Shown here one piece after another: positions 357 to 42,600 of a stretch of 64,000 bases of DNA (its first letter is position 1; each line of letters begins with the position of its first letter). A program made the translations under genes and the position numbers. This DNA comes from Bispira polyomma (lineage: Eukaryota). The stretch covers positions 24,180,001 through 24,244,000 of the forward strand of contig OZ287757.1 of NCBI GenBank assembly GCA_965649765.1, read 5' to 3'. Below the pieces are notes generated by a model. It was not told the origin of the DNA. It searched no databases and worked only from the letters and a program-made list of their open reading frames with translations.

Positions 357-1525
357 TTGGATACTGGAATCTCCATGCCAACAGAATCCCAGTATTCCAG
401 ATCAGTGGAAGAACGAAGTAAGGCACCTCAGAGACCATCCTCTAGACGAGTGTATGAATCAAGGTGGGCCTTATTTGAACAATGGGCCTCGGAGAATAAG
501 GTTGTCAGCTCCTCAGCTTCTATAGCTCAGACAGCAGATTTCCTATTATTCCTGGTTCAAAAACGAAATCTCAAACCTGCTACAATAGCCGGATACCGAA
601 CTGCTATTGCAGACCATTTGGGCACCCAGGACTAGAAGTCTCAAAAAGTCTTGATCTTAACAGACTTCTAGCCAGTTTTTATAGGGACAAACCTACCAAA
701 GACAGAAGTATACCTAGTTGGGATCTATCATTGGTACTATTGGCTTTAACTAAGCTTCTTTTTGAACCAATTAAAGAGGCTTCCCTGAAACTTGTAACCT
801 TCAAAACGGTATTTTTGATGGCTTTAGCCTCTGGCAAGAGAAGAGGGGAAATACATGCCTGGACCTTTAACTCTTTGAAACATAAACCACACTGGAAAGA
901 GGTTACTGTATCTCCCTCACCAATATTTTTGGCTAAAAACCAACTGGCTTTCCAGGGTCCTGATTCCATTAAGCCTGTGGTTATCCCTGCTCTAAGTCCT
1001 TTTTTAGATGACAATTTAGTTGAGGACATCAGCCTATGCCCAGTGAGATCTCTGAAGCACTATCTCAAACGTACTCAAGATCTTAGAAAAGGAAAAAATC
1101 TACTTTTTATATCCTTCCGTGAGGGCTTTAGTAAAGATATCCAAAGATCCACCTTATCTTCCTGGCTCAAGCAGACTATTATTTTGGCTTACCAGCATGC
1201 TGACACAGAGATTGAAAACTTGTGTCAAATTAATGCCCACAATTTGAGATCCATGGCTGCCTCTTTGGCCTTTAAGGGGGGTGTCTCTTTAGACCAGATA
1301 CTTGGGGCTTGCTTCTGGCGTTCACATAGCACGTTTACTAGCTTCTACTTAAAGGATGTAGCTTGGCACTCTAGGGATGATGCAGACTTCTCCTTAGGTC
1401 CTGTAGTCTCAGCTCAACACATTGTCCACCTGACTTCAGTGAGTGCTGTCTGGACTTTATCTTTCTACATTGTTGTCATAATGGTTATGATATATCACAC
1501 ACTTATGTATTGTTCTCTCCAATAG
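357..1525 (+). pseudogene. DIRS tyrosine recombinase, one frameshift near 625
   Basis: N-terminal part in 357-635 (YESRWALF...TIAGYRTAI); catalytic part in 731-1525 (ASGKRRGEIH, CPVR, AHNLRSMAAS, CFW, FTSFY). The two ORFs are in different frames. Confidence 0.85.
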
Positions 1526-3920: not shown

Positions 3921-4145
3921 GGGGCATGGTGGTCTTGTGGTTAGAAGTGACTGCTTTACAATCACTGGTCTCTCACTAATGTGGGTTTGAAATCCTGTTC
4001 ACTCCTTTAAATGGGAAAGTTTGTCAGGTACTTGCAAAAGGCCAGTGGATTACAGTGGTTTGGGCACTGGGGTCTTACACCATTGAATCTGGCCATCGTG
4101 ATATGACCTAAGCTGTTAAAAGTGATGTAAAACCAAACTAAATAC
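3921..4145 (+). mobile_element. tRNA-derived SINE
   Basis: ggggcatggtggtcttgtggttaga head with box A and box B-like ggtttgaaatcc; body shared with copies at 9095-9300, 28648-28877, 40070-40255 and 42765-42975 (all minus). Confidence 0.75.
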
Positions 4146-4344
4146 ACCAATGTATGATAACACTCTAACAAACTATATCAGGAGCAAAAATGTGTGACAT
4201 GTGTGTGAAACGTGTATGGATGACACATGTATGAAAACAAGCCCTTGTCTATCACAGATAACCTTTTGACACTCAGCAAAAAACTACAATTATTCTCTTA
4301 TAAAAGTTACACCTGGGTTATGGGTGTGATAAGAGGGCATAAAC

Positions 4345-4860
4345 TCACACAAATACATTGATGCCTGCTGGGTGTATGGTGGGGAAGGCCCAGATTAAGT
4401 ATAGTTCCTGGCATCTGCGCCTTTTAGTGGAATCTAGGTGATTATCCTTACCCATCCATTGGAAAATTATGAACTCCATGTGTTTTACAGAATGGTGCTT
4501 CTGTGTAAAGTGTCTTGTTTTTGGTTTCTGGTTAGGTTCATTAAGTTTTTTTGGAACTTCTTCCAGTAGAGATATGGTCTCACTGTTCAGTTGGATGACT
4601 GGAATTGGGGTGCCAGTAGCTGGAGTATTGAAAGCTGTGTGACTGTCCACTTCTAGGTGGTTGATAGCAGTGCTAAGGGCAGTATCACTCTCACTAATTT
4701 TGACCCAGTACAATTAAGAAAGATATGATGTGTGTGTGAGAGAGAGAGAGGTGTATTTGTCTTCTCCAACAATTTGCCTTATATATACCTTTATATCTTT
4801 GTATATATTTCGAAAATCTTATTGGATTATCTCATCAGAGGCTGATAACTGATTTTTGAA
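4345..4860 (-). mobile_element. Internally deleted Penelope-like element: hammerhead, ORF start, GIY-YIG endonuclease C-terminus
   Basis: ORF 4345-4713 ends RHFTQKHHSVKHMEFIIFQW...RRRCQELYLIWAFPTIHPAGIN, resembling the HF...H / R..RE..WI....T..P.GLN tail of Penelope GIY-YIG domains; a hammerhead lies immediately 5'. Confidence 0.65.
4776..4842 (-). ncRNA. Type I hammerhead ribozyme
   Basis: Minus strand reads GCCU-CUGAUGA-GAUAAUC-CAAUAA-GAUUUUC-GAAA-UAUAUAC-(12 nt loop)-GUAUAUA-UA-AGGC: full catalytic core, stems I/II/III paired, AUA cleavage triplet with cut after position 4780. Confidence 0.85.
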
Positions 4861-5279
4861 TTTTCCCCAATTACAATTATTCTCTCTATATATTTAATAA
4901 GATTATGTCACAGAAACCAGATTTACTAATAGATGTTACAAGACAGCTAGGAAATTAAACTTTTTTTTTCTCATTTGTTTTTTCCCTTATAAACCAAATG
5001 GACCATAGCTTGAACGTCAACATACAGTAGACCCTCTATTATCTGAACTACAGTAAAACCTTAATTATTCAAACAACTATTATTATCTGGACATTTATTT
5101 TGATGAGCACACTTTTAAAATTAAAATTTTCCTAGTACTTTACACTGAAGAAATTTATCTATTTCATGAATATGTTGTTCTCCCAACATGTTTGGATGAC
5201 AGAGGTTTTGCTGCATCCTTTTTGGTTCACAAATCTCTGCAATTTTACATCACATTTTTTACTTCAGCATTGTTCTGCA

Positions 5280-5902
5280 TAATGGTGTCATCGCCAGTGT
5301 ATATTGTGGATCGATGCCGTGCAGTGGACCATGAGCGATATCGCGGTATTTATCGTCATTGAAGCACATAGATTTTGAAAGTAAAATATTTTGTTAGGTT
5401 TCTAAATAATTATATCCCCGACTACCGTTTTTATAAGTTACATTCACAAAAATTAAAATCACTTATACTTGTAATTAGTGTTTGCTGTGTATGTAGAAGA
5501 TCACCTAAAATATATTGTATATGTCACAGAAGTATATCTGTGTATGTATAACCACAGCATTGAAAAACAGATATAAGATAATATATGTGAGCGATTACTG
5601 CTGAGTCAAAGTTAGATATCCTTATATGGAAGTCGGTGCTTTGGGGTACTCCTAAGGATGATACAATTGATATATACATGCTAGAATAGATCAAAGCCAT
5701 TTTCGGTAAGTTTCGTTGATATATGATAGAATATTTATCGCAAAATATTTTACTTTTCAATCTATGGCCTTCAAAGGTATATATACATGTCTTTATTTTA
5801 TTTGTGTGAGATGCATCGCGGACATTTGTAATCTCCCGATTATCCCCCAGGCATATCATCACTGGTGAATGTGCCCAATCGTCACCCGTGATGACACCAC
5901 TA
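5280..5902. mobile_element. hAT-type non-autonomous element (MITE)
   Basis: TIR TA(A/G)TGGTGTCATC; 8-bp TSD gttctgca at 5272-5279 and 5903-5910. Confidence 0.85.
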
Positions 5903-6208
5903 GTTCTGCATTTAGGTAGCACAGTTTTACAGTAAAGATCCTAAAGTCTGACATATATCTCAAATTGGCTTTATGCTAAAACAATTACACAAAATCAACC
6001 AAAATGGGGCAAAATTAGTAAAATACCAGTTGAAATTGGCTTGTAGTGATTATACACTCAGACTAAATTTTTTTTAATAAATTAGCTAAGTATTTATAGG
6101 TAACAAATCTTATATGTATGGTGATATGTACCACACAGACAGAATTTTGATACCTTTATTATACATAAAGTCACAGCAGGACATGTTTTGAGATTATTCA
6201 GTAGAGTA

Positions 6209-6395
6209 CAGTAGAACCTTTATTATCTGAATATATTGGTTGGGCAAGATTTTATTTGGATAATAGAATGTTTGTAAAATAGAAGAGGCATGTTAATATA
6301 AAAACAGAAAGAAGATAAAATTAAGAAGAGTGAAACTAATGTTCACCAAATCAAATATTTGGATAATAGAAGCTCGGATAATTGAGGTTCTACTT
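6209..6395. mobile_element. Abundant ~190-bp Tc1/mariner(pogo)-like MITE family, representative copy
   Basis: TIR cagtagaacctctattatcc / ggataatagaggttctactg at TA sites. Related copies near 5023-5215, 8995-9402, 11370-11509, 18057-18240, 28362-28508, 29300-29731, 31195-31556, 34625-34800, 35476-35625, 38228-38420 and 38529-38712. Confidence 0.75.
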
Positions 6396-6477: not shown

Positions 6478-6522
6478 TCACTTGCCCTCTGCCTTCTTCT
6501 TCAGACGAGTTTCTTGTAACTT
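6478..6522 (-). CDS. CEP295: CEP295-like last coding exon
   Basis: cag|KLQETRLKKKAEGK-TGA. Confidence 0.88.
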   Translation of the reverse strand, partial: KLQETRLKKKAEGK

Positions 6523-9500
6523 CTGCAAGTAAAATAACAAACAACCCATAGATTATCAAACAAAGTTAAAAAAACAAGAGTTGTCTTAAAAAAAAAAGAC
6601 ACGTGCGCACAATGTGAGAAATATTAATCTGACAGCCCACAGTTTGGCGGGGTCAATTGCTTCCAAGCAATCCATAACGGCCTTACATATTATTTCCAAC
6701 ATGGGCGCACCTTTTTTAGAGTGAAAACAAGATCAGGCACAGAGGTTCCACATCCCCACTGCTGTATAGTAACCACTTTCCCAAAGATAGTGAGAGTTGG
6801 ATCAAGTTAGTTACTGAAAATTACTGAAAGGCAATTTAGTGAATTGTTACACAGTTACACACATAGTTACCTTGTTATACTCCTTGACCCTCTCTCTGTT
6901 TACTGTTACCATAGTTACACACATAGTTACCTTGTTATACTCCTTGACCCTCTTTCTGTCAACTCGTACCATAGTTACACACAGTTACCTTGTTATACTC
7001 CTTGACCCTCTCTCTGTTTACTGTTACTATAGTTACACACAGTTACCTTGTTATACTCCTTGACCCTCTTTCTGTCAACTCTTACCATAGTTACACACAT
7101 AGCTACCTTGTTATATTCCTTGACCCTCTCTCTGTTTACTGTTACTATAGTTAAACACAGTTACCTTGTTATACTCCTTGACCCTCTCTCTGTTTACTGT
7201 TACCATAGTTACACACATAGTTACCTTGTTATACTCCTTGACCCTCTCTCTGTTTACTGTTACCATAGTTACACACATAAAATTACCTTGTTATACTCCT
7301 TTGCCCTCTCCCTATTGGCTGCGTACTTCTGTTTTTTGGCATCTTCTTGCTTTTTTTCTTTCACGTCATCTAATTGATTGTAAAGCCTGAAATATAGAAC
7401 ACACAAATATAGACAGAAAGAGCACGACACAACACAGTCAAAAGGTAGGTCCTGGGAAATACATATCTGGAGTCATATTCACAATATTCTTGGAATGAAC
7501 TTCTTAGAATGATCTTAGTCTGAGCCAAACAGATTCTTTGAAACTAAATTGTCAGCTAATCAAATTGGTTGAGACAAAATTTTAAGAATAAGAATCTTTG
7601 TGAATACCAGTGGAGTTATTGATGTCATATTGCATTCTAGACGGGTGGACAGACACAGGCCATTCCAATGTCCACGCAATGTGTTACAATGGTGATAATA
7701 ATACCCCCCCTCCCCACTCACCGACTGGTCCTCTGTTTCATTTCCTGTTCCTCACGTTTCCTGTCCGCCGAAGACTTACTGCTCACCTTAGTAGGACTTG
7801 GGATTTTAGTGGCTGTAACAGAAACACACTTTAATCAGTGCAGGTATTTACAGTGGTGGAACATTATGAAATAGAAATACTTGTATATATAGTAAAATGT
7901 TGTCATTCCCACTTCAACATTAAGGGCCCAAACCGGTTTGATCCTCACTGCAGGCCTGGAGATTGTACCCTTGGACAAGGTGCTTCACACAAAAGTTGTC
8001 CCCCTCTACCCAGGTGTATAAATGGGTAACTGGCCGCTAATAGGTGTTAGTTTTTGTGCGCCGTATGTGGTAGCATGGCTAGTATAAGCTTCCTGAAGGA
8101 GATGAGACTGAACAATTGCTTCACAAGTGGAAGAACCCAGGCTGGGGGTGTAAACTGTAAAGTCGGCTGAAACTTCAAAAGAGGTGATATCAGACTATAA
8201 ACCTGCAGATATTTACATTTAAAATACTTTAATTGAGTTAGTTAAATAATAGTAGTTTAGACAACAGATTCCACTGTATTTACTTTGACCTACTTATTGA
8301 CAGTAGGTCAAAATTATGAAAATAGAAATAGTTTTATATACAGTTTAAAAACATTGCCATTGCCAGGTCAACATTAAGGGTCTGAAGTAGGTTCCTCTGC
8401 TGAAGATTTTTGTGTAAAGAGGGTAAAGCTCACTGGAGCCACAAATTAATTTACACTTGTGATCTAATACACGTTAGTCCCCCCAGAAGTCCACCACATT
8501 ATGTAGAAGCTAAAAAGGCCAGGCCTCATTTAATGAAATATTATTGATCTTTCATTTAAGGTCTTCATTCATTGTTGGAAAAGCACAAATGCTTACATAT
8601 ATATATATATAGCTATTTTAGCCCAATGAGTTTGAACAATAAAAATTTATTTCAACTAAAAATCTGAACTTGTATTGCTACTGTAAATAAAAATTAGCCA
8701 TAAGTATTTAATTCATAAAAATATCGTAAATTATTGACATTTTCTTCCATCCTAAAATAAACAAATACATTACCTTTTCCGAGGCCGCGGTTTTTCTTCC
8801 AGTGGGCCATGGTTTTGGTCATGTGGTCTCCCCGTGACACGTCCCCTTGTTTGCCCTTGACCTTGGCTGCCTCTTTCCTCTGCTGTGACTTTTGTATGAG
8901 GTGTCCTTTCTTTCTGGCAAACACTTCCTGTAGACTGAGGCCTTGTACACTGTCTTCTTCTGAAAGGTCTGGTGAGGGGGGAATATACAGACAGCAGAAA
9001 CCTCTATTATACAAACTTATATTATCAGAATACTCGATTTTATGAATTTATTTCCACTATCGCAAAGGTAAGTATTCTTATAGTTTTATACTGAATTTGA
9101 ATTGATTTACGTCGCTTTCAACAGCTTTGGATGTATTATGACAGCTAGAATTAGTGGTATGGCAAACCAGTACTGAAACACTGTAAACCATGAGTGGCAT
9201 CAACCTATGGCAAGTACCTGACAACCTTTCTCACATGAAGAAGGAATCTGTGGGATTCGATCCCCAGAACTGAGCGGCCAGTGATTTTAAAGGAGACACT
9301 AATAAGGTTTATACTGAAGTGCCGTCTTCTATTTTATGAACCTTCTATTATCCAAACAAAATCTAGCTCTTCCAACATGTTCGGATAATAGAGGTTCTAC
9401 TGTAGCAGAAATCTTTATTATATGAACATTTTGGGATCGACGGTACACTATCTCCTTATGAAGGATCTGGGCAAGCAAATATACATTACAAAACTAGAAA

Positions 9501-12500
9501 AATTTGAGAAATAATATTTACCTTACCCCAACCATTGGTCTTGTTGGCTGCTACTGAGCCACGGTAATAAGTCCTTGAAAGAGCTTAAAAATTAGGGTCT
9601 GTAAGGCCAGTTGGTGACTAATACACGCCCTAAATATAGCCCACAGTGGTAGGTCAAATTTTACCAGCAATGTAGACTTTCTGACACTGGTTTCCTACTT
9701 AATATGCTGGCAATACATTAAAAGGCTATAAAAACAATTATAGTTAATGAGATATTTGACACGTTCTTTTAAATCCCAAAAGAGCTATAAAGAGACACCT
9801 TACAAGTAATCTTAAGTCCGAGTTTTATTGTTATTTTGGGACAGACCACTGATCTCTCTACTCACCGTGTACTTTTCCCACTGGTATGGAGATCACATGA
9901 CTGTCTGAATCAAATAATCCCCTATTATCACCCACTCCCTCCTCCTCTTGTGTGGCTTCCTCCATCCTCAGCGGCGTGAATTCGTCCCACTCCCAATCAA
10001 ACAACGAGCCCGTGTTCTGAGGTGTTGGGGTTAAGGTCGTGTCTGACCCCGCCGATGACAACGTCTCCATGGTAACGAGACCGGTACTTGGTGAGGCGGT
10101 GATGCCACTGTGGTCGGTGGTGGAGGGGTAGAAGTGTAGGTTATTAGAGGAAGCAGTGGACTGCTGAGGGTCAGTAGCGGTGAGGTTTGTGTGGTCAGAG
10201 GAGAGGGGTACAAAGAGGGTCGGGGAGGAACCTTCTAGAGGGGTGGGGGAAGTCCTCCTGAGACCTGGAAAACAGGGAGAAAATAATTACAACATTGGGG
10301 TCAATGTGTGTTACATTGGAGTTTAAGGTTGTTGCTACCATTTTTTTTTTTTAAAAAAAATTGAAAAGCTTGAATAATATGTTGAACAAAAATATAAAAA
10401 AAACTATGTCACACCAGGCTCGTTCAAAAACTACAGAGCTTTGAACATGGTATGTATTTACATATATTTGCCTATTGTTTTCAATGGAAAAGCCGGTTTT
10501 GGGAAGGAAAAATTCCAGAAAAAGGTACTTTAAAAATTTTTCACCCCACAGAATTTAATTTGTTTCTCCCCAGTTGTGGAAAATTACAAAATGTAACTAA
10601 ATATGAGAAAAAAACGGGGTCACCGTGCTAAATTTTTTAAAATCTCAGTTTGTTTAGAATTTTTAGGGCCCAAAACCTTATGTTTCTATTGAAATAATAG
10701 GAAACATGTTGAATTTTTCTGAAGATAAACATCATATTTATAGCAGAGTTGCTCAAAAAAGGCAAAATGACAAATCATTCCCAATAGACAATTAAACAAA
10801 GCACATTTTCTGCAATTTTAATGAAAAAGTATTGAAATTTATTTTTTGGGGAAAAAAATGGTAGTGAACAACCTTAAACGACACATGACAAAACAGGGAT
10901 ATACAGAATTTTACCACAATTACACGGGCGGCCATAATTCTGGTCGGGTCACACTACCATCTTGCATTTATAAAGAATTTAGCGAGGGAAATTAATATTG
11001 AAAACACATGGTACTTCATCCCATGAATTAAAGTACAGAACACTATATTTTATTTTAAAGAAATCTACGGTCTAGACATTGAAATGAACGGTATTGTGAC
11101 CCAACTAGTACTATGACTGCCCATGTAGAGCCGTAGTGTTTCTATGCTTCCAAGAGTGGTAAATGTTTCTCCACATCAAAGAGAAATTGATTCAACAGAG
11201 TTCTATTTAAAGAGGTTTGACTGTACTTGTGTATATTCAAATATACTCATAACTTTTATAAAATCTATTTTGATCTCTGAAAATGCGATACAAAAACAGA
11301 TCCTTAAAATAAAGAGGGACAACACTAGGGTCAATGCGTGTTTAATTCTGAAGGGCACCGTAAATACAGGACAACACTCCCCCTGTTATCTGAATAAGAT
11401 AGGACAGCAAGTATAAAACATTAGGAAAATATAGCTTTGGGAGAGTAAAAGTAACATCATAAAATTGAATATTTGGATAACAGAATTTTGGATAATAGAG
11501 GTTGTACTGTAAAGCCATCGTCAGATTAAGAAATCTGCTTCGAATTTTTGTAACTATTATGATACATATATACCCAGTATGACATCGACCAACAAAGTAA
11601 GGATTTCTGAAGTTAATGCGTTTACTTCTATAGGGCCTATTCGATGACCAAGCATCCTCTGTGGCGCACATCCCAATCAGTGTGCAAAATAATACTCCAA
11701 TAGGAGAAAAGGTTTCTACCTAATGTTGGCAATTCAAATAATCAGCCAAATATTCTTTTCTCGTTTTTGATGCTAAAACATACAAAACCAGAAATCTGTT
11801 TTTTCAAACTCTGATGGACTGCAGATTCACAATTGAAATTTTGTTACATCATAAAAACATAACTGTGTGTCCATATCAGCAGACAGCTTTTACCACAGTA
11901 AGGCAACTGAGCTTATTTTATACCAGGAAATGTATTTTTATAAATAAATAATAATAAAAACAAGAAATATTATTCAAAAACATAACTAAGTAAATTAAAA
12001 TGAACACACATTAAAGAAACTTTAGAATTAGCAAAAAAATTTCAAGGTACTGGTGTGTTACTGTTATAAAAATAATATATGATGCAAAATTTAACATTTA
12101 CTCAAATTAAACATTATGTTACAGTGTTGAACCCTCTTAAGTTGAACCTCTACTTAACCAGGTTAGATATTTCTCCACTTAGAATTTAACTTAACAGAGT
12201 TCTACTTAAATGGGTTTTCACTGTAATTTTGTTTGTTGTATATATGACCGAGTGTCTGTTAAGTGTTTATGAAGAGGGTTTATTTCTAAATGTTTTCTAG
12301 AAGCAAAAATAACTAAAAAAATAAGTAAATTCCAAAGAAGCCCATATGGTTTAGTTGTTTTATATATTTTCAGTATAAATCACACAAATTTATCAAAGGA
12401 GAATTGGAACCTAAAACTAAAATAAAAAGACCAAAAAAAAAATTGTTTTGTTGAAAAAAATGCAATGCTGATGTGAAAAAATTTTGAGTTTTGTAACAAA

Positions 12501-15500: not shown

Positions 15501-18500
15501 TACTCTAGCCAAAGGTATATGTGTCCCTTAGGCTTGTCCTTACCCCAGTAAACTTGTGTGCACCCTGTCCTTCACCCCATGTGTTACTCATTATACATGG
15601 AATAACCATATACTTGTGACGATTCATTTTAATAGAGATTTTAGCACTGAATTTAAATGTGTAGTCAGAGTTCACCTATCTTTACTCTAGCCAGAGATAT
15701 GTGTGTGTATACCTTAGACTTGTCTTTACCCCAGTAAACACTCCAGTACCCAGTCCCTTTTAACTGACTTAAAGACCATGCTTTACTCACTATACATACA
15801 ATCACCTATACTTGTGACCACTTATTTTAATAAGAGGTTTTAGTGCTGAATTCAAATATACAGTCACATTTCACCTATAATTTTCCTTACCCCCATAAAC
15901 TCCAGCAGCCCCTTTGAAGTCACCCTCTGTCTCTCTTCTTCATGTCTGTCACTCATATGTTTAGACTCCTCCCATAACCAAAAACCACTATAAATGGAAT
16001 GACCCTAGACTTTGACCATTCAATTTAATAGAGCTTTCAGCACTGAATTTAAATCTGCAGTAAGACGCCACATATCTTTACTCCAGCTATTGATATAGGT
16101 GTCCCTTAGACGTGTCCTTACCCCAGTAAACAGACACCCTCTATAGTAACCCTCTGTATCTCTTCCTCGTCTCTGTCACTCATACATTTAGTCTTCTGCA
16201 ATAACTAAACACCATGTATTACTCACTATACATTGAATGACCCTATACTTGTGACTAGGGGTGGGATCGTCCGCCATTTTGCAGATCGAGTGTCGAGCCT
16301 ACAATAGCGAGTTGAACTCGAGTAGCCGAAATATCAGTCATTGCAAAGGTCTAACTGTCCCAAATCCGGAAAGCCGCGAATTTAGTATGAACCAATCTCA
16401 GATACCAGTCTATAATATGGCGGCTGATGTAAACATACCACCAAACGGAACCTAGAGAACCAAAATGGCAAATATGTGGTGGGATATTGAAAATTATAAG
16501 GAAAATGTATATTAACTGTAAGAATTAGACCTAAATTATTGTTTTTATCTGTTTTGGATGTACATGTGCGAACTCGAGTGATGGAATGCACGACTCGATG
16601 TATGCTTCCATTATCACCCACCGAGTCCCGACTCGAGTTACGGTCAACTCGTCCCAGCACTACTTGTGACCATTCATTTTAATAGAGCTTTCGGTGCTGA
16701 ATACAAATATGCAGTCACATGTTGCTTATGTTGATATTTGTGTAACTGAGACTTGTGCTGACCCCCAGTAAACTCTAGCACACCCTGTGTAGTCACCCTG
16801 TCTCTCCTCTTCATGTCTGTCACTCATACATTTAGACTCCTCCCATAACCCAACACAATGTGTATACATGAACCTTACCGCAGTAAACTCTAGCGCCCCC
16901 TCTGTAGTCACCCTCTGTCTCTCCTCTTCATGCCTGTCACTCATACGTTTAGACTCCTCCCATAATCAAAAACCATGTGTATACATGAACCTTACCACAG
17001 TAAACTCTAGCGCCCCCTCTGTAGTCACCCTCTGTCTCTCCTCTTCATGCCTGTCACTCATACGTTTAGACTCCTCCAACAACCTCTCGTGTTTTCTCAT
17101 CGTCTCCTCAATCCTACGAGTCAGGTCGTCTAGTGGTGTCTTGTCCACACTGGACATCTGACCACTCACACCAATACTAACACTCTCCTCCTCTCTGTTC
17201 TCACCTATAGTCGTAGGGCGGCTCCGATCTGTGAGATAGACAAAAGGATTTTGGGATAGTACACCCTTATGTATTCAATTTTGATGAGTTTCATGTTTTA
17301 GTTCTCTCAAATTACGATTTCCTATGCTTTTTACACTGAAAATACCTCTATTTCTATTTTTGATACCGACCCAGTCCAACATGCCGCCAACCGACATCCT
17401 ATCTTTAGTACTCCGATCTGTGACAGAGACAAAGGGAATTGTGGGATATACAATTACACACAAAACAACCGGATGTATTCAATTTTTATAAGTTTTATAT
17501 TTCAGTTCTTCCAAATTATGTTTTGATATGATATGATAGATTTTTAATGTGCCTAATTTAGGCTAGGCATCTTCTAAAGCGCAACATCATTGACAAAACT
17601 GTTAACATCGTAGTTTGTTTCGAATGCAAGTTCGTGAACGGGGGGTGATGTGGAGGAGAAAGATGTCTATGAAGGGTAAGCGAGGGTGAATAGAAATATC
17701 TCTATTTCTATTTTTGATAAAGACCTAGTCCAACATGCCATCAACTGACATCCTGTCTTCCAAGAGGCTTAGTGCCACCGAAATAAGCACTAGCCAGAGT
17801 GTCCAGCTACTTCATGAATTACATAATCATAAATATTTTTTTTTTAACCTTTTAGCAAGTTCTATATTTTTTTTAACTTTTAGCAAGTTCTATATTTTTT
17901 TTAACTTTTAGCATGTTCTATCCATGCATAAACTGTAATTATAAATACCCACATATTATCACATTTATCCTAAAAAATTATGAACTAAAACAATAGAAAC
18001 AATGCATTTTAAATGGAGTGGCAAGTCCTTAACTTAACAAACACACTTTATAACACAGCAGAAACTCTATTGTCCAAACTTCTATTTAACTAAATATTCA
18101 ATTTTTACAAACTCAATTTCACTCTGCCTAATTTATATCTTTGCTTTATACTTCAATACCCCTTCTATTTTATGAACGACATTCTATTATCCAAACAAAT
18201 TATCACTCTCCCAAGTGTTCAGTTAATAGAGGTTCTCCACTCTATCCTCTCTACAAACAGAGCTTACCTGTAAGACCAGTAGAAAATGTAGGGAACGCCA
18301 GTCCTTGGGTTGTGCTAGGCATGCGACCTTGAGAGGTCAGGGGCTGGCTGAAGCCAATGTCAGATGAACTGGCAGACATCATACGAACATCAGGATCACC
18401 CGATGCAAACCTACAAGTGGGAAAAGAAGCTTTAGGAAAATGAAGTGGCTCTTGAGTCAACAGTGAATACTACATCTATAATAGATCTAATCTAGTCATT

Positions 18501-26000: not shown

Positions 26001-27600
26001 TATCTAGCACCGTTCCCGAGATAACGGACATTTTCCGAAAAAGACGCAGAAATTCAAGATGGCCGCCAAAATTGGACATTTTTTCAAAAGTTTACATATA
26101 AGCAAAATCAACCTGTGGGTCGAAAATGAGCTCAAAATCGCTCTATCTAGCACCGTTTCCGAGATATTTGACATTTTCGAATGAGACGCAGAAATTCAAG
26201 ATGGCCGCCCAAATTGAAAATTTTTTTGAAAGTTTGCATATAAGCAAAATCAACCTTGTGGGTCGAAAACAAGCCCGAAATCGCTCTATCTAGCACCGTT
26301 TTATCTCAGTAACGATCGCATATTTTTGAATGGGGTAAAAAATAAATAAAAATTCAGGCTATTCTTTAAAAGTTACGCGCTGCATGTACTGGTCTAAAAT
26401 TAAAAATAAAAAAAATCATCACACGCTCAAAAAAGCACCCATCAACACATTTTTATCCCATTTTGTATGATTGATCGACCCTGTCAATCAGTCAATTATC
26501 ACCAGATTGATCTAAAAATTTACGGACATCTATGCTTTGGTATTTGCAACGTGCATGCTAAATTTCATTGAACTATGACAAGTACTTCAAAAGAAAAGTT
26601 GATAAAAGTGCAAGACAGAGCAAAATAGAGCAAACTACTCATTTGAAGTACTCAGTACTCATTGAGTACTGGACTTAGAACTGTGAGATTTTTACATCAT
26701 ACATAAAATCAAAAAGTAGATGAATAACTTATACCAAGAAAAAGCCGAAATCGCAATACTTTCTGAGATAGCAAAAAAGTACCGATTTTTCGCATTTCAA
26801 TAAAAATCAATCGGTTGGCAATCGGTCAATTATCATCCGATTAATCTCATCAGCGTCTCCCGTCCTGAAAATTGCCTTACCAAAGTACAAACCAAATTTC
26901 ATTGCGCTATGATGAATACTTTCTGAGAAAACCTAGTGACAAGCACTTTTACACCCCCAGGGTCACCTGACATTTAAGTAGGCCAAAGTTCAAGGCCAAG
27001 AATATCAAAAAAATTTCCCACTCCTGGTTAAGAGAACTGCCAAAAATCATTTTGATGCAGATAATATTGAAGGAGATATTCAAGGAAGACCATGCGGCGG
27101 CGGCGGCAGCGAGGAAACCAGGGGTGAAACAAAATAAGCGCCCTTTTCAAGGGACGCTTTATTAGTACATTTTGGCTTATAAATTTAAAAGTAGCACCCA
27201 CAGGATTCTAAAATTCACTTTAAAACATCTACAGACCATGCCAAACATATTCTGTAAATATGAAGTGACAACTCTTCATAGTTTCAGACATTACGTTGTG
27301 GACACATATTTCATCAACTTCTTCCATATATACACCCACCTTTCTTATAAGCTAGATGGTCATCATTGGCCAAAAACATGTGAATTTTCTCCTGTATACA
27401 AACAAGAGCCCTTACGGGATGCTTAATTACCTTAATAGACAAAAAAAGTGCATTAAAGAGACATTGAAACACAGAGCAGACATATACCAAAACCATGTAA
27501 ATAATAAAGAGCTCTTCAAATCAATAATCCATAATGTCTTACAAAAGAACACTGTATATATAAGTGTGCCATATGATCACAGAGTGTACATCTGGTCTCT

Positions 27601-27651
<51 letters not shown>

Positions 27652-30600
27652 GAATCCACCCAGGGACGACAGATTTTTTTTTTTAATTTAATCTAATAGA
27701 CAAGTTATGAAATATTTCTGTAACTGAATCTACTTCATGTGCCAACTAGTTGTAACTATATGATGTATACGTAGAAAAATGAATACATCTTTATAAGGAT
27801 GCAACCGAGAGCTCGACACTCGCTATACAAGCACATTTTTGCAAGGAATTGAGTCCATTTTTCCCACTAGACTACTCGCTAATATAGCAGATTATCGCTC
27901 ATACAATATAAAAGATGCATAAAATATAAACGTTAGCACATTTCGGCCTGGTTACAGTAAATAATATTTAAGATTTTGTCAAATAACCTACATTTTATTC
28001 AATATTCCTAATATGTTTTAAAATATCAGACAAAACTACAGGAAAACGCCCAAATTTGTTTCTGGTGTTTCCAAATGGTAAATACTAAACCACGCGAGTA
28101 CCCCAATTTGAGTCAGGTTTCCAAGAACGAGCACTCGAAGCAATTTTTTGCACCCGTCCCACCCCTACATCTTTATAGTGGACAGTTATAGTGAACATTT
28201 TGGCTGGGTCTGGTGAGTGTTCACTATACAGAACTTTTACAGTACACTACAGTAACTATCATTATGATGATTCTACCACCACCTTCCAGTGTATTAAGAA
28301 AATCAAGTAAATATTTTATGCCAAAGCAGTTAAAACATTGGAGAGTATTTATCATTCACACTAGAACCTCTATTATCGAAACTTCTATTATCCGAATATT
28401 TTTGATTTTATGAACAAATTTCCACTCATCCAATTTAAGGTTTTCCTATTGTTTGATAATGAATTACCTTTTGTACTTTATGAACTTTAGATAATAGAGG
28501 TTCTACTGTACACTGAGTATAAAGTGTGGAAGGTACGAAACTAAACCAAGCACAAAAATAACAAACTTGTACAAGAAACATCCTCTACCGATTTTCAAGA
28601 AATAGTCATTGATAACATTATGAATATACTGAACATTTTACTACATTTGGTTGGTTGGTTGGTTGGATTTTACGTCGCTTTAACAACTTTGCTCATATCG
28701 CAATGGCTAGATTTAGTGGTGGAAGAAACCAGTGCTAAACCAATGTAAACCGCCGACCGAAGGCAAATACCCGACAAACTTTCTCACATGAAGGAATAAA
28801 TGGGATTAGAACCCACATTGGTGAGAGGTCAGTGATTGTGAAGTAGGTATTCTAACCAGTAGACCATCGCAGCCCCTTTTATCACGTTTTGAAGCAAGGG
28901 GAAAGAAAGGTGAAGCCCAAGTGATTCTGCACCTTCAAATGTGGTATGCTTTCTGATTTTTCGAGATGAACCATTTTTGAATTTAATGTTATATTAAGAA
29001 AGCCAAATTCAATGGTGCAGGAAAGTAGTGCTGAAGCACTAAATCACCAATCTATGGTAAATCAGTTTTACAGTACACTAACATACCCACTCCTGTCATT
29101 TCCACCTTTTACAATGGAGTCTTGAGGTAATAACCTCGCCTTCTAATTTACTACAATTAATATATAATTTAATATTATCCTTCATTGGATGGGAGAAAGG
29201 TGGACGTCATAAACAGGCAAATTATTTCCTTGATGTGGCTTATCACAGTAGCAGAAGTCAAAGATGGCGATTTTTGTCAAAAAAAAAAAAATCCTTGTAC
29301 AGTAGAACCTCTATTATCCAAACTTCTATAATCTGAATATTTGATTTCATGGCCACCTTCCCACTCCACTAAATTTATATTTTTCTACTATTTTACAGAA
29401 TTTGAATATTTAACGTCCACTCTAGTTTAGGTTATATTGGGACGGGTAGTTAGAAACGCTGGAGGAAACACTGCATACAGTTGATCAAGATTCTGCACTG
29501 AAACCAGCGGCCCACAGTAAGGAACTACCACCTTTCCCACATTGGCATCGACGGTAGTCGAAGTCACGCAGCCCAGAGGTGAGAGACCAGTGATTGTGAA
29601 GCGCAATGCTTGCTAACCACTAGGCCACTGCGGCCCCATGTTTTACAGAGAAAGCCTCTTTTGTTCATGAACCTTCAATTATCCAAACAAAATCGTCCTC
29701 TCGACATGTTTGGATAATAGAGGTTTTACTGTACTTGTAATTATGAAGCCTAACTTACAAAAATAACATCAGATTAATCGTTTCTAGAGCCCAAGCTTTC
29801 CATAACCCCCTTTATCACACTGACGTATTAATTAGTACTGCCACTTGCTAGGCAGAAAATTTTTCGATTATCACTCACGCTTTCCGACCGAGTATCGACA
29901 AATATCGACATACATTTCCCCACACTTTATCAAATTGTTAATAACAAAAGAAACCCTTCTTACCTCTATATGGTAGATTATTATTTCCACATATTGATAA
30001 TATTTTGCACCAAAATATAAATTGATATAAAATATGAATCAATATATGATCCCAGATGCATTCACTAGGTGGCGCTATTGTATAGGTTCCTGTTTCCTGT
30101 GTAAACAATGGAAATGAGGCAAGTGCTTTTATTTAGTTATTAATATCATCCAGAAGTAGTAGTAAATGACACAAAAACGCACGGAAATTGCTGTAAAAAG
30201 GTAAATATAGTATATTATGTGTTACAAATGTGCTATCGGTTCACATTTTGACTTTCGACCATTGTCGGTTTTAGGTCCAGCGAGCGATAATATTGGAAGT
30301 AGCGAGTTTCACGGCAGCACCAGTATTAATAATTATAGATTCTTACCCAATGGAGTGAATGTTCCCGATTCCTGAGTAGTTAAATGTTTTGAATTCTCAT
30401 CCTCTCTACCCGTGGCTTCTGAAATTAAAACAATAAGTTGGGTCAATATACCCAAGGTCAAACTTAAATAACATTTTAATAAACCCTATTTATATACAAA
30501 TTCTTGTTTGGGTAAGAACTTACTTTTTTTACCTTTGCTTTTAACAAAGCTGTGGTGAATTCAAATATACAGTCAGATTTTACATATTTTTTTGTCCTCA

Positions 30601-39600: not shown

Positions 39601-42600
39601 CAATCACTAGTAGCCTTTATTTTTTGGAACAACACTTTGAGACAGAGGGTTTGATGAACAATGGCCTTAAAACAAGATCATTTTGACAATAAGACTATAC
39701 CTAGCTTAGTGTTGGATGGATAATTAAGAATAAATTAGTTTGGACTTGACATCGTTTTTCACACATTTTGAGTCATATCATGATGGGCAGTTCACACTGG
39801 TGAATGAAATCAAAAGAAGGGGTAGTTGGTCATGAGTTTCTGCTCTGCAACCACCGGCCTTCAGTAAGTCTACTGCCAACTTTCCAACATGATGAATATG
39901 CAAGATTAAATTATACCTTAAGAGGAAATTCATTGAATGATTTAGTTATTTTAGCTCATGATATTTAATTAGGATTAGTTTTTCGGTGTAATAATCATGA
40001 TATTAACACAATTTTCAGATGACAATTTATGTCTTTTACTTCTGTAAACGGGCATAGTGGTGGAGAGATAGGTAACAGCTCAACAGCTCAGGTCATATAA
40101 TGGCCAGTTGTTTTTTTTGTAAGAGAAACCAGTGCTCAAGCACTGCAAGTCATGGACCTACACCAAGTAACTTTCCCACATTAAGGAATAAATAGGATTC
40201 GACACACATTGGTGATTGTGAAGCAGGGGCTTCTAACCACTAGGCTACTGCAGCTTTTTAGTATTTAATTTTGTTTTTAACAACCACAGGTTATTTATAA
40301 AATCCCAACATCCATGTCAAATAATAAGATTATTCAGTACAATGTGGGGCTATGTATATCGTACCTGCTATAAACATGTCCTCAAATGCCCTCTCCATGC
40401 CTTTCTGCTGTTCATCTAGTTCCTGTAGTCTGTTAGAAGGAGGTATAAAGATCTGCTTCTGTAAACACAAACATGCCACTTGGAAGTACTAAATATCTAT
40501 TATATATATGTTACAGTCAACTTGTAAAACCAGTCATTTCGTGTAATGACTGAAATTATGGTCCAGTCATTATGCATCATTTTCGAATGCAATTTTTTTG
40601 TTTAATTTAGCATTTTTTATCCTTATTTTTCATACTTCATCTTCTTTATGTGTAATAAAAAATGGCACAAAATGTTAACTGTTTACTGTTAAATGTAACA
40701 TAAAACATATTTATTTGATAAAATATGCATAAACACCCATTTAGTACTGCCTATTAGGACTAGATATTCATAATATAAATTTCCTATGACTAAAGATAAC
40801 TGTGGTTAATTCCATTAATACACATATACAGTATTCAGTAGACCATAAGTGTACATAAAATATCTAAAACATGTCTTGCAGAACATTTAGGATCATCAAC
40901 ACTTAGTATACTGATATTATCAATCATGTTTAATAGTCATAATCCTGTATGTGTGCTAACTTTATTACTGATCTGACTCCTGCTTATTTTCTGACTATTT
41001 TCTATACATATTTCCATAGACACTGGCTCATCGTAGGTTAAATCTCCAACACAAGAAGGTCTATACACATAAGCTGATACCTACAGACAAGTAGATCACC
41101 TTTATACTTAACATCTATATAGTATACACAGTTGACCATTCTGACATCTATAAACAACTTCACAGTCAGACATGAGAAAAATTTAGACAAGTTGACCACT
41201 TTTATGGTCATACATAAGACACATTTAGACAAGTTGACTACTGTTATGGTCATACATAAGACACATTTAGACAAGTTGACCACTGTTATGGTCATACATA
41301 AGACACATTTAGACAAGTTGACCACTGTTATGGTCATACATAACACACATTTAGACAAGTTGACCACTGTTATGGTCATACATAAGACACATTTAGACAA
41401 GTTGACCACTGTTATGGTCATACATAAAATACATTCAGACAAGTTGACCACTGTTATGGTCATACACAAAACACATTTAGACAAGTTGACCACTGTTATG
41501 GTCATACATAAGATACTTACTGGTAAGTTAGCCACAACCTTCTGTCTGCGTACTCTGTCTGACTTTTGGAGGTCACTCAGTTCATGTAAGATGTGGCCAT
41601 AGTCCTGAAAATAAGTAAATACAGTTACAAAGTGTAACATTATTTTAAAAATTAAAATTTCAACAAATTCACTTTTTATTTACATTGTTTTTCTTAGAAC
41701 CAGTTAATATTCAGTTGTCAGTTAGTTTGATAAACCAACAACTGGTTAATAAAAGGTCAGCTCTTGATCACCAGCAGATCAAGACATCCATTATGACTGA
41801 CTGCCCTGACAAGTCTACTTTAGCTAACTAACTATACACACTCAACAGATTACGATGTTCCTGATCTAACCGCCATGACATCCCTATTCCCCCTAACCCA
41901 CTGTACACACTCACCAGATTGAAACGTCCCTTATCTACCCGCCATGACATTCCTATTCCCCCTAACCAACTGTACACACACTCAACAGATTAAGATGTTC
42001 CTGATCTAACCGCCATGACATCCCTATTCCCCCTAACCCACTGTACACACTCACCAGATTGAAACGTCCCTTATCTACCCGCCATGACATCCCTATTCCC
42101 CCTAACCAACTGTGTACACTTACTAGATTGAAACGTCCCTTATCTACCCGCCATGACATTCCTACTCTCCCTAACCCACTGTACACACACTCACCAGATT
42201 GAGACGCCTCATATCTACCCGCTATGACATCCCTACTCTCCCTAACCCACTGTACACACACTCACCAAATTGAGACGTTCCATATCTACCCGCTATGACA
42301 TCCCACTCTCCCTAACCCACTGTACACACTCACCAGATTAAGATGTTCTTTCTCTATCTGACCCCCCCCTTCACCCACACCACCCACAAACCCACTGTGT
42401 AGACTCACGAGATCAAGACGCTCCTTCTCTAGTGCCACCTTATGTCGGACTCTGGCTTTCTCCCGCCTTTCAATCTCCACACGTTTCTTCTCGGCCTCCA
42501 CATCATCGTAACGCTCACTCTCAAGCTCTGCTGTCGCCTTGGCACTGTCCTAGTAACCAATAGCAATGTAAGACATGTTTATTTCATCATAAAAACTAAG

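Follow-up and report, generated by a model that had tools for sequence, protein, structure and literature searches.

Organization of the locus

The minus strand of the window, meaning the whole 64,000-nucleotide stretch of DNA analysed here, carries the 3′ end of an ALMS-motif (CEP295-like) gene, a repeat-rich region and, further downstream, a hammerhead motif that lies within a short copy of a Penelope-like element (PLE). The last base of the stop codon is position 6478 and the motif follows 1627 nucleotides further on the same strand, in agreement with the 1.6 kb given in a preliminary description of this DNA; from stop codon to predicted cut site the distance is 1.7 kb. Upstream exons match positions 90-122 (E 0.0011) and 2-28 (E 0.04) of the Pfam ALMS_motif, both matches falling below the curated whole-protein cut-off, and the exon at 52016-51861 has what we take to be a resemblance to the CEP295 N-terminus. 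When the first exon was used to look for homologues, 0 of 12 candidates scored. The main features are:

6478..6522, minus strand: last coding exon of the ALMS-motif (CEP295-like) gene, with splice sites and stop codon read from the sequence
4893..6256, minus strand: repeat-rich downstream region, with AATAAA at 6256, 6224, 6160, 5802 and 5099 and ATTAAA at 6078 and 4898
4872..4885, minus strand: 5′ copy of the target-site duplication (14 bp), followed by four extra bases at 4871-4868
4298..4867, minus strand: single-armed, 5′-truncated, non-autonomous PLE copy comprising the hammerhead, the start of ORF1 and the end of the endonuclease, with 3.0 kb deleted
4770..4851, minus strand: type I hammerhead ribozyme with a 7-bp stem III (sequence, conservation and covariation, copies starting at the site)
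4711..4725, minus strand: end B, a fixed 3′ end ~55-65 nucleotides beyond the cut site and just past an AC-rich run, unused by the window copy
4345..4713, minus strand: fused frame, ORF1 N-terminus joined at 4518/4517 to the GIY-YIG C-terminus
4285..4298, minus strand: 3′ copy of the target-site duplication, one base of which is common to the element's end A

Thus five AATAAA and two ATTAAA hexamers stand between stop codon and hammerhead, amid a patchwork of other repeats. Copies of a MITE-like small inverted-repeat element occur at 5023-5209, 6207-6391, 9325-9404, 11370-11511 and 18054-18236; one of them starts 87 nucleotides past the stop codon and contains two AATAAA hexamers.

Structure and conservation of the hammerhead

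The motif at 4851-4770 reads on the minus strand as a type I hammerhead, with cleavage predicted between 4780 and 4779. The complete core noted in the preliminary description was borne out, as were the lengths and pairing of its stems. Its parts, each assigned from the sequence, are:

4842-4839, minus strand: stem I 5′ strand, GCCU
4838-4832, minus strand: core CUGAUGA
4831-4825/4818-4812, minus strand: stem II, 7 bp with one U-U mismatch, G10.1-C11.1 present
4811-4808, minus strand: GAAA
4807-4801/4788-4782, minus strand: stem III, 7 bp
4781-4780, minus strand: UH, here UA, within the triplet AUA
4779-4776, minus strand: stem I 3′ strand, AGGC
4851-4847/4774-4770, minus strand: possible stem I extension, CAGUU/AAUUG

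The bare core pattern matches the window once versus 5.05 matches expected by chance, and was rejected as evidence because this count lies below expectation. The folding of the motif is unexceptional (z -1.67). A comparison with the Rfam hammerhead models, which the preliminary description had proposed as a check, gave no match to the window motif for any hammerhead family at the gathering score or at E<=10, and so Rfam cannot serve that purpose here.

The motif was therefore compared with its relatives. From 150 reverse transcriptase (RT) matches, 20 were taken from the 79-92% identity bands, and the hammerheads of seven, whose RT identity reaches down to ~79%, were aligned with that of the window. 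The type I arrangement, CUGANGA...GAAA...UH around three stems with stem I open, is held in all eight copies. Stem I is invariant, as is the core except at the free position N7. Pair 3 of stem II is U-A, C-G or A-U in six of the eight and U-U in two, pair 4 is A-U, U-A or C-G in seven of the eight, and pair 6 of stem III is A-U in six and U-A in two; stem I and the first five pairs of stem III do not vary and are uninformative on covariation. The cleavage triplet is AUA in five representatives and AUC in three. Invariance of stem I and core, compensatory pairs in stem II and genomic copies that start at the cut (see below) together place the motif beyond chance.

The distal extension of stem I fared less well. 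The pairing proposed in the preliminary description, in a layout of the kind used for tertiary contact between loops I and II, can form in the window, but it is present only there and in the closest relative, L179; in the other families the distal bases pair differently or not at all. Of the 70 sampled copies with the full motif, 19 have a change in one of its pairs. It was accordingly rejected as a conserved feature.

Thermodynamic prediction with ViennaRNA gives -9.4 kcal/mol for the active fold and -17.6 for the minimum, a gap of 8 kcal/mol, with a probability of at most 7% for stem I and above 0.97 for stem III. The favoured structure is a hairpin in which UUAUCAG would pair with the core, and since this would sequester the core, slow cleavage is predicted. 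The window sequence is nevertheless probably catalytically competent, to judge from the footprint that identical copies of the family leave at the cut site.

A YAG trinucleotide directly at the start of stem I (4844-4842 in the window, minus strand) is conserved in all eight aligned hammerheads, where it could be a splice acceptor or a part of the core-sequestering hairpin. A splice acceptor at such a position has been reported for Drosophila Penelope. No spliced copies were seen among the breaks mapped here.

Many features of the motif are those described for hammerheads of PLE pLTRs (PMC4209133), including the type I architecture, a long stem II, a short stem I, G10.1-C11.1, a palindromic base of stem III, a location in the pLTR of an RT/GIY-YIG element and the presence of many dispersed truncated copies. 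The hammerheads of animal PLEs, however, are described there as minimal or as having a small stem III, and as working poorly, as dimers. Stem III is 6-8 bp in all eight aligned copies, neither absent nor very short, and resembles instead that of fungal and protist PLE hammerheads, which cleave as monomers (PMC4209133).

A young family of Penelope-like elements

The hammerhead in the window belongs to a young PLE copy that is non-autonomous, and the attribution to a PLE made in the preliminary description holds, given a 570-bp PLE copy with an autonomous RT/GIY-YIG partner. The genome searched comprises 1.04 Gb in 75 contigs. Of 420 candidates from a DNA search, 40 were scored, giving at least 41 matches including the window at 92-100% identity. 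Many loci dispersed through the genome match positions 4867-4298 at 96-98% identity over 570 bp, a 24-mer immediately 3′ of the cut recurs exactly at 183 places, and the family has more than 100 near-identical copies in the genome. Three DNA runs were compared with the window. In two of them, from one sample that may be the source, a contig spans 4838-5312, shows no differences and crosses the 5′ junction of the insertion; in the second sample at least 4960-5312 is covered.

The window insertion corresponds to two pieces (4060-4403 and 7409-7630) of the full-length element L039. The loss of 3.0 kb between them is inherited family-wide, the same 570 bp being spanned by at least 19 distinct other matches, and the deleted form also occurs as tandem units of ~1.7 kb each. 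The family's ATG reads ATT in the window copy (4698-4696, minus strand). This copy has three private substitutions in its 570 nucleotides, none of them inside the 82-nucleotide motif, and the chance that the motif would receive none is 0.60. The motif is present at full length in 70 of the sampled copies, of which 23 carry the identical 82-mer and 57 keep the core and stem I; one further copy differs only in the length of loop II.

The autonomous partner L039 encodes RVT_1 (E 9.8e-08) and GIY-YIG (E 2.6e-05) domains, and its translation contains the DKG motif, CxxC between motifs and downstream histidines (CCHH). A C-X4-C-X2-C linker separates RT and endonuclease (EN) in L038 and L039, and the form CX2-5CxxC is common to Neptune and Nematis (PMC8557442). 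Judged from its sequence by the motif criteria of that study, the element is a PLE of the Neptune/Nematis type. It has the RT followed by a C-terminal GIY-YIG domain with CCHH, the linker and the DKG motif of such EN+ PLEs, as well as their partial tandems, inverted 5′ copies, 5′ truncation and variable target duplications. The autonomous layout is hammerhead, end B, ORF1, RT/GIY-YIG, end A, C2H2 ORF/spacer and again hammerhead; the separate upstream ORF1 and the third, C2H2 ORF were not found among the Neptune and Nematis features in the part of PMC8557442 consulted.

This third ORF, of ~260-360 amino acids in intact-looking copies and with two N-terminal C2H2 zinc fingers, lies between RT-EN and hammerhead. 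It is seen at L163:5318-6169 (plus strand) and in L161, L176, L178, L180, L173 and L126, which represent several sister PLE families, and shows ~38-63% identity between families with an excess of third-position changes. A literature search returned no description that matches a third PLE ORF with C2H2 fingers. The spacer of the deleted subfamily starts with a cluster of TGACGTCA-like palindromes (L035:7040-7115), which could be the element's promoter. Arrays of 3-4 units of deleted forms are present at C3:83.38 Mb and C3:55.77 Mb.

The deleted form also invites comparison with animal non-LTR retrozymes (parts of PMC7229834 and bioRxiv 10.64898/2026.07.22.740005), which likewise are non-autonomous, bear hammerheads, are partly tandem and are derived from or moved by PLEs. 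Those have a non-coding unit of 170-400 nucleotides and a circular RNA, whereas the unit here is ~1.7 kb long and carries ORF remnants; it thus falls outside the retrozyme unit size.

Two fixed 3′ ends and their pairing

Two positions account for most 3′ ends. Among 100 sampled copies, 68 terminate at end B, 45-70 nucleotides past the cut, and 15 at end A, ~47 nucleotides past the RT-EN stop, with 14 reading on and 3 terminating elsewhere. The two ends are ~420 nucleotides apart in the deleted form and 3.4 kb apart in the autonomous form. End B would represent an internal start of reverse transcription. The window copy is a single arm that appears to be primed at A and that extends 88 nucleotides past the cut site.

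Where two arms meet head to head, they are almost always of different kinds: in a pattern search of the loci examined, an A end meets a B end in 33 of 34 such insertions (p 4e-9 vs 50:50), and the sole B-B pair is nested inside an A-B locus. The arms of one insertion overlap in sequence, and one arm passes two hammerheads. A sister family provides a head-to-head insertion at C2:59174127-59195340 (L163, L205-L208), in which an inverted arm is joined to four tandem full-length units of 5.43 kb.

Similar behaviour is on record for the Anolis Poseidon element PAc (PMC11167929), with an AC-rich internal RT start past the hammerhead that is akin to end B, AT-rich targets and extension of both target strands. 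PAc, however, has two starts 30-40 nucleotides apart with no difference between strands, in contrast to a separation here of ~420 nucleotides or 3.4 kb and a combination of A with B in nearly every pair.

Genomic copies that begin at the predicted cleavage site

Copies were sampled for their 5′ ends by taking the first 100 of the 183 matches (contigs 1-6), picked solely by the 24-mer at +10..+33 from the cut, an anchor that hides any 5′ ends within that stretch. Ten of the 100 start exactly at the predicted cut: a non-A base precedes AGGC in six, a single chance A does so in four, and UA is kept in none. In the next 299 nucleotides upstream there are 36 breaks, so that 0.2-0.4 (0.24-0.37) starts would be expected at the cut site. 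The excess has p about 1e-11, or 2e-5 at a five-fold background. This strict count omits five rows placed by eye, namely L061, L084 and L091 at 0, L117 at +1 and L073 at -4; with the by-eye rows the count at the cut site is 13, one of which is a duplicate. Genome-wide, the A is absent in 18 of 157 pattern matches, comprising 17 true breaks and 1 point mutant; a single insertion, a palindrome centred on the cut, accounts for two of these breaks with its two arms.

Several cut-site copies are complete insertions of ~60 nucleotides, bounded by the cut on one side and end B on the other; two of them (L099 and L218) have a clear target duplication. Others extend 476 nucleotides to end A, or onward into ORF1, and the site is therefore not at a fixed distance from one priming point.

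Starts at the cut also occur, with a weaker excess, in sister families, in 3 of 99 copies of family 2, in 4 of 82 of family 3, which has the AUC triplet, and in 3 of 124 of family 4. The corresponding p values are 9e-4, 2e-5 and 2e-3, the backgrounds of families 3 and 4 being borrowed from families 1-2; two of the three site-0 copies of family 2 (L186 and L285), as well as L280, were placed by eye. At a five-fold background families 2 and 4 become non-significant (p 0.06 and 0.11) and only the AUC family survives. In families 3 and 4, 0 breaks fall within 7 nucleotides upstream among the base-matching matches inspected (30 of 77 and 30 of 121, respectively).

A control set of 100 copies, anchored at end A instead, yielded 71 breaks, with a maximum of two independent-flank breaks per position (three within ±1 nucleotide). 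Three other accumulations were rejected as truncations or break hot spots. A pile at -888 (16 copies) marks the boundary between two spacer types and one at -616 to -652 is a TA microsatellite, both outside the background window, and a control pile at 214 is a shared internal deletion.

These starts likely record ribozyme cutting in living cells, as far as can be judged from genomic sequence. The 5′ ends might instead pile up because RT stalls at the base of stem III, because an endonuclease nicks at the TA run or because transcription starts near a TATA-like sequence. We regard such an origin as improbable, even though stem III is predicted to form almost invariably and a TATATATA run precedes the site, the same TATATATA having been proposed as a TATA box in a rotifer pLTR (PMC3846280). 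Stalling at stem III predicts that UA would be retained, and it is kept in 0 of the 10 sampled copies. Ends do not accumulate at the corresponding TATATAC run of the 5′ arm, the footprint recurs in the AUC family despite the different end of its run, and none of the 71 control breaks contributes to a comparable hot spot. A transcription start driven by a TATA box falls 20-30 nucleotides downstream of it, and the base before the junction has no G bias. Stalling, nicking and a TATA-driven start fit the exact position less well than ribozyme cleavage does.

Our search of the main texts of part of the literature found no report of genomic PLE copies that start at the hammerhead cut. For PLE hammerheads the part of PMC4209133 consulted gives no in-vivo evidence, and for PAc the corresponding part of PMC11167929 reports no reads beginning or ending at the cut; here, genomic 5′ ends lie at the predicted cut in ~10% of arms.

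A possible route of integration

The footprint and the pairing of unlike ends point to cleavage of sense RNA templates in vivo and to asymmetric twin priming. The element's enzyme would nick AT-rich DNA, and the two target strands would prime reverse transcription of the sense RNA at A and B. For the ~10% of family-1 arms that begin at the cut, the hammerhead would already have cut the RNA, and the cDNA would stop there. The remaining arms would have passed the site on RNA that was uncut, perhaps with the core sequestered by the alternative hairpin, or that ligation had closed again into a circle. For the window copy, reverse transcription would have been primed at A, passed the cut site by 88 nucleotides and then ended in truncation. 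At somewhat less than even confidence, we tentatively propose further that the genome preserves a nucleotide-exact record of PLE hammerhead cutting in the germline, that the template is a sense RNA processed by a hammerhead of the monomer type and circularised in part, and that every insertion is made by such twin priming, with one target strand starting right after the ribozyme and its partner right after the gene for RT and endonuclease.

Both cutting in vivo and copying of a sense RNA are argued for by the copies that start at the sense-strand cut in four families; an antisense, self-primed template has been proposed previously (PMC3846280). If correct, the proposal would explain why PLE insertions are arranged head to head and exceed one unit, and the strict combination of A with B offers a testable integration model. 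Hammerhead function in PLEs was called unclear by Craig et al. (PMC8557442), and in vitro an anole PLE is able to transpose with no cleavage by its hammerhead, which was found dispensable in that system (PMC11167929). Hammerheads in PLEs were already known, but in the main texts of the part of the literature searched we found neither a cut-site footprint nor the A+B rule, nor a hammerhead with so long a stem III in an animal family of the Neptune type.

How far circles contribute is a separate matter. A template of circular RNA has been modelled for PLEs by Cervera and de la Pena (PMC4209133). Cutting could be efficient, with monomers ligated to circles from which most copies are read, and the 10% footprint would then reflect monomers that escaped ligation. 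This is a realistic alternative that falls somewhat short of an even chance. A stem III of 7 bp should permit monomeric cleavage, and two observations are consistent with reading from a circle: arms that exceed one unit, such as the arm that passes two hammerheads and the A arm with four tandem 5.43-kb units at C2:59174127-59195340, and the sequence overlap between arms of one insertion. Uncut multimeric RNA or later tandem duplication would yield the same DNA, however, and the slow cleavage predicted from the alternative hairpin runs counter to efficient cutting.

Relation to the CEP295-like gene

We consider it quite likely that the young PLE copy came to lie 1.6 kb behind the gene by chance, that its ribozyme cuts the element's own RNA in the germline and that it has no selected role for the gene. 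The preliminary description had drawn from an intact ribozyme in a deleted element the suggestion that it could serve the gene. This argument fails, because the deletion is inherited, the copy is very young, and core and stem I are kept in 57 of 70 copies, so that intactness is no proof of co-option; with three private substitutions in the whole copy, an unchanged motif is the more frequent outcome (P 0.60).

It is very improbable, in our estimation, that the hammerhead was co-opted to cut 3′-extended CEP295-like transcripts and so shapes their 3′ ends or termination, in the manner proposed for the mammalian Clec2 hammerhead. The ribozyme is on the same strand as the gene, with the stop codon 1.7 kb from the cut site, its sequence is likely active, and polymerase II commonly transcribes past poly(A) sites. 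By chance alone, though, one insertion in two will lie in the sense direction of a neighbour, and this very recent insertion is indistinguishable from more than 100 others. The Clec2 hammerhead, which lies in a 3′ UTR and is also sense to and downstream of the host stop codon, cuts between the stop codon and the poly(A) signal (PMC6765202), whereas here the cut falls past five AATAAA hexamers, each a candidate signal, in a recent repeat copy. Read-through RNA of the gene could still be cut at 4780, most likely after upstream polyadenylation, and RNA cut there would probably have been severed at the poly(A) site already. A role in termination is further weakened by the 5′-OH that hammerhead cleavage leaves, an end that Rat1, the exonuclease of termination, is expected to attack poorly (PMC3241649). 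The hammerhead is thus probably incidental to the CEP295-like gene, and the interest of the finding lies in the family-level signal.

Several other features of the surrounding DNA were noted. Within introns of the gene, tandem repeats of 58-60 bp at 6859-7328 copy the end of the preceding exon including its donor site, and a second intronic tandem array lies at 41123-41602. At 27595-27668 on the plus strand, Rfam identifies a tRNA gene (72 bits; anticodon GUU), which lies within the span of the CEP295-like gene and opposite to it. At 500-1525 (plus strand) the window contains a tyrosine-recombinase frame (Phage_integrase, E 0.0027) that continues a DIRS-like element, and in L040, the 10 kb before the window, this DIRS-like element adjoins a Gypsy-type LTR retrotransposon.
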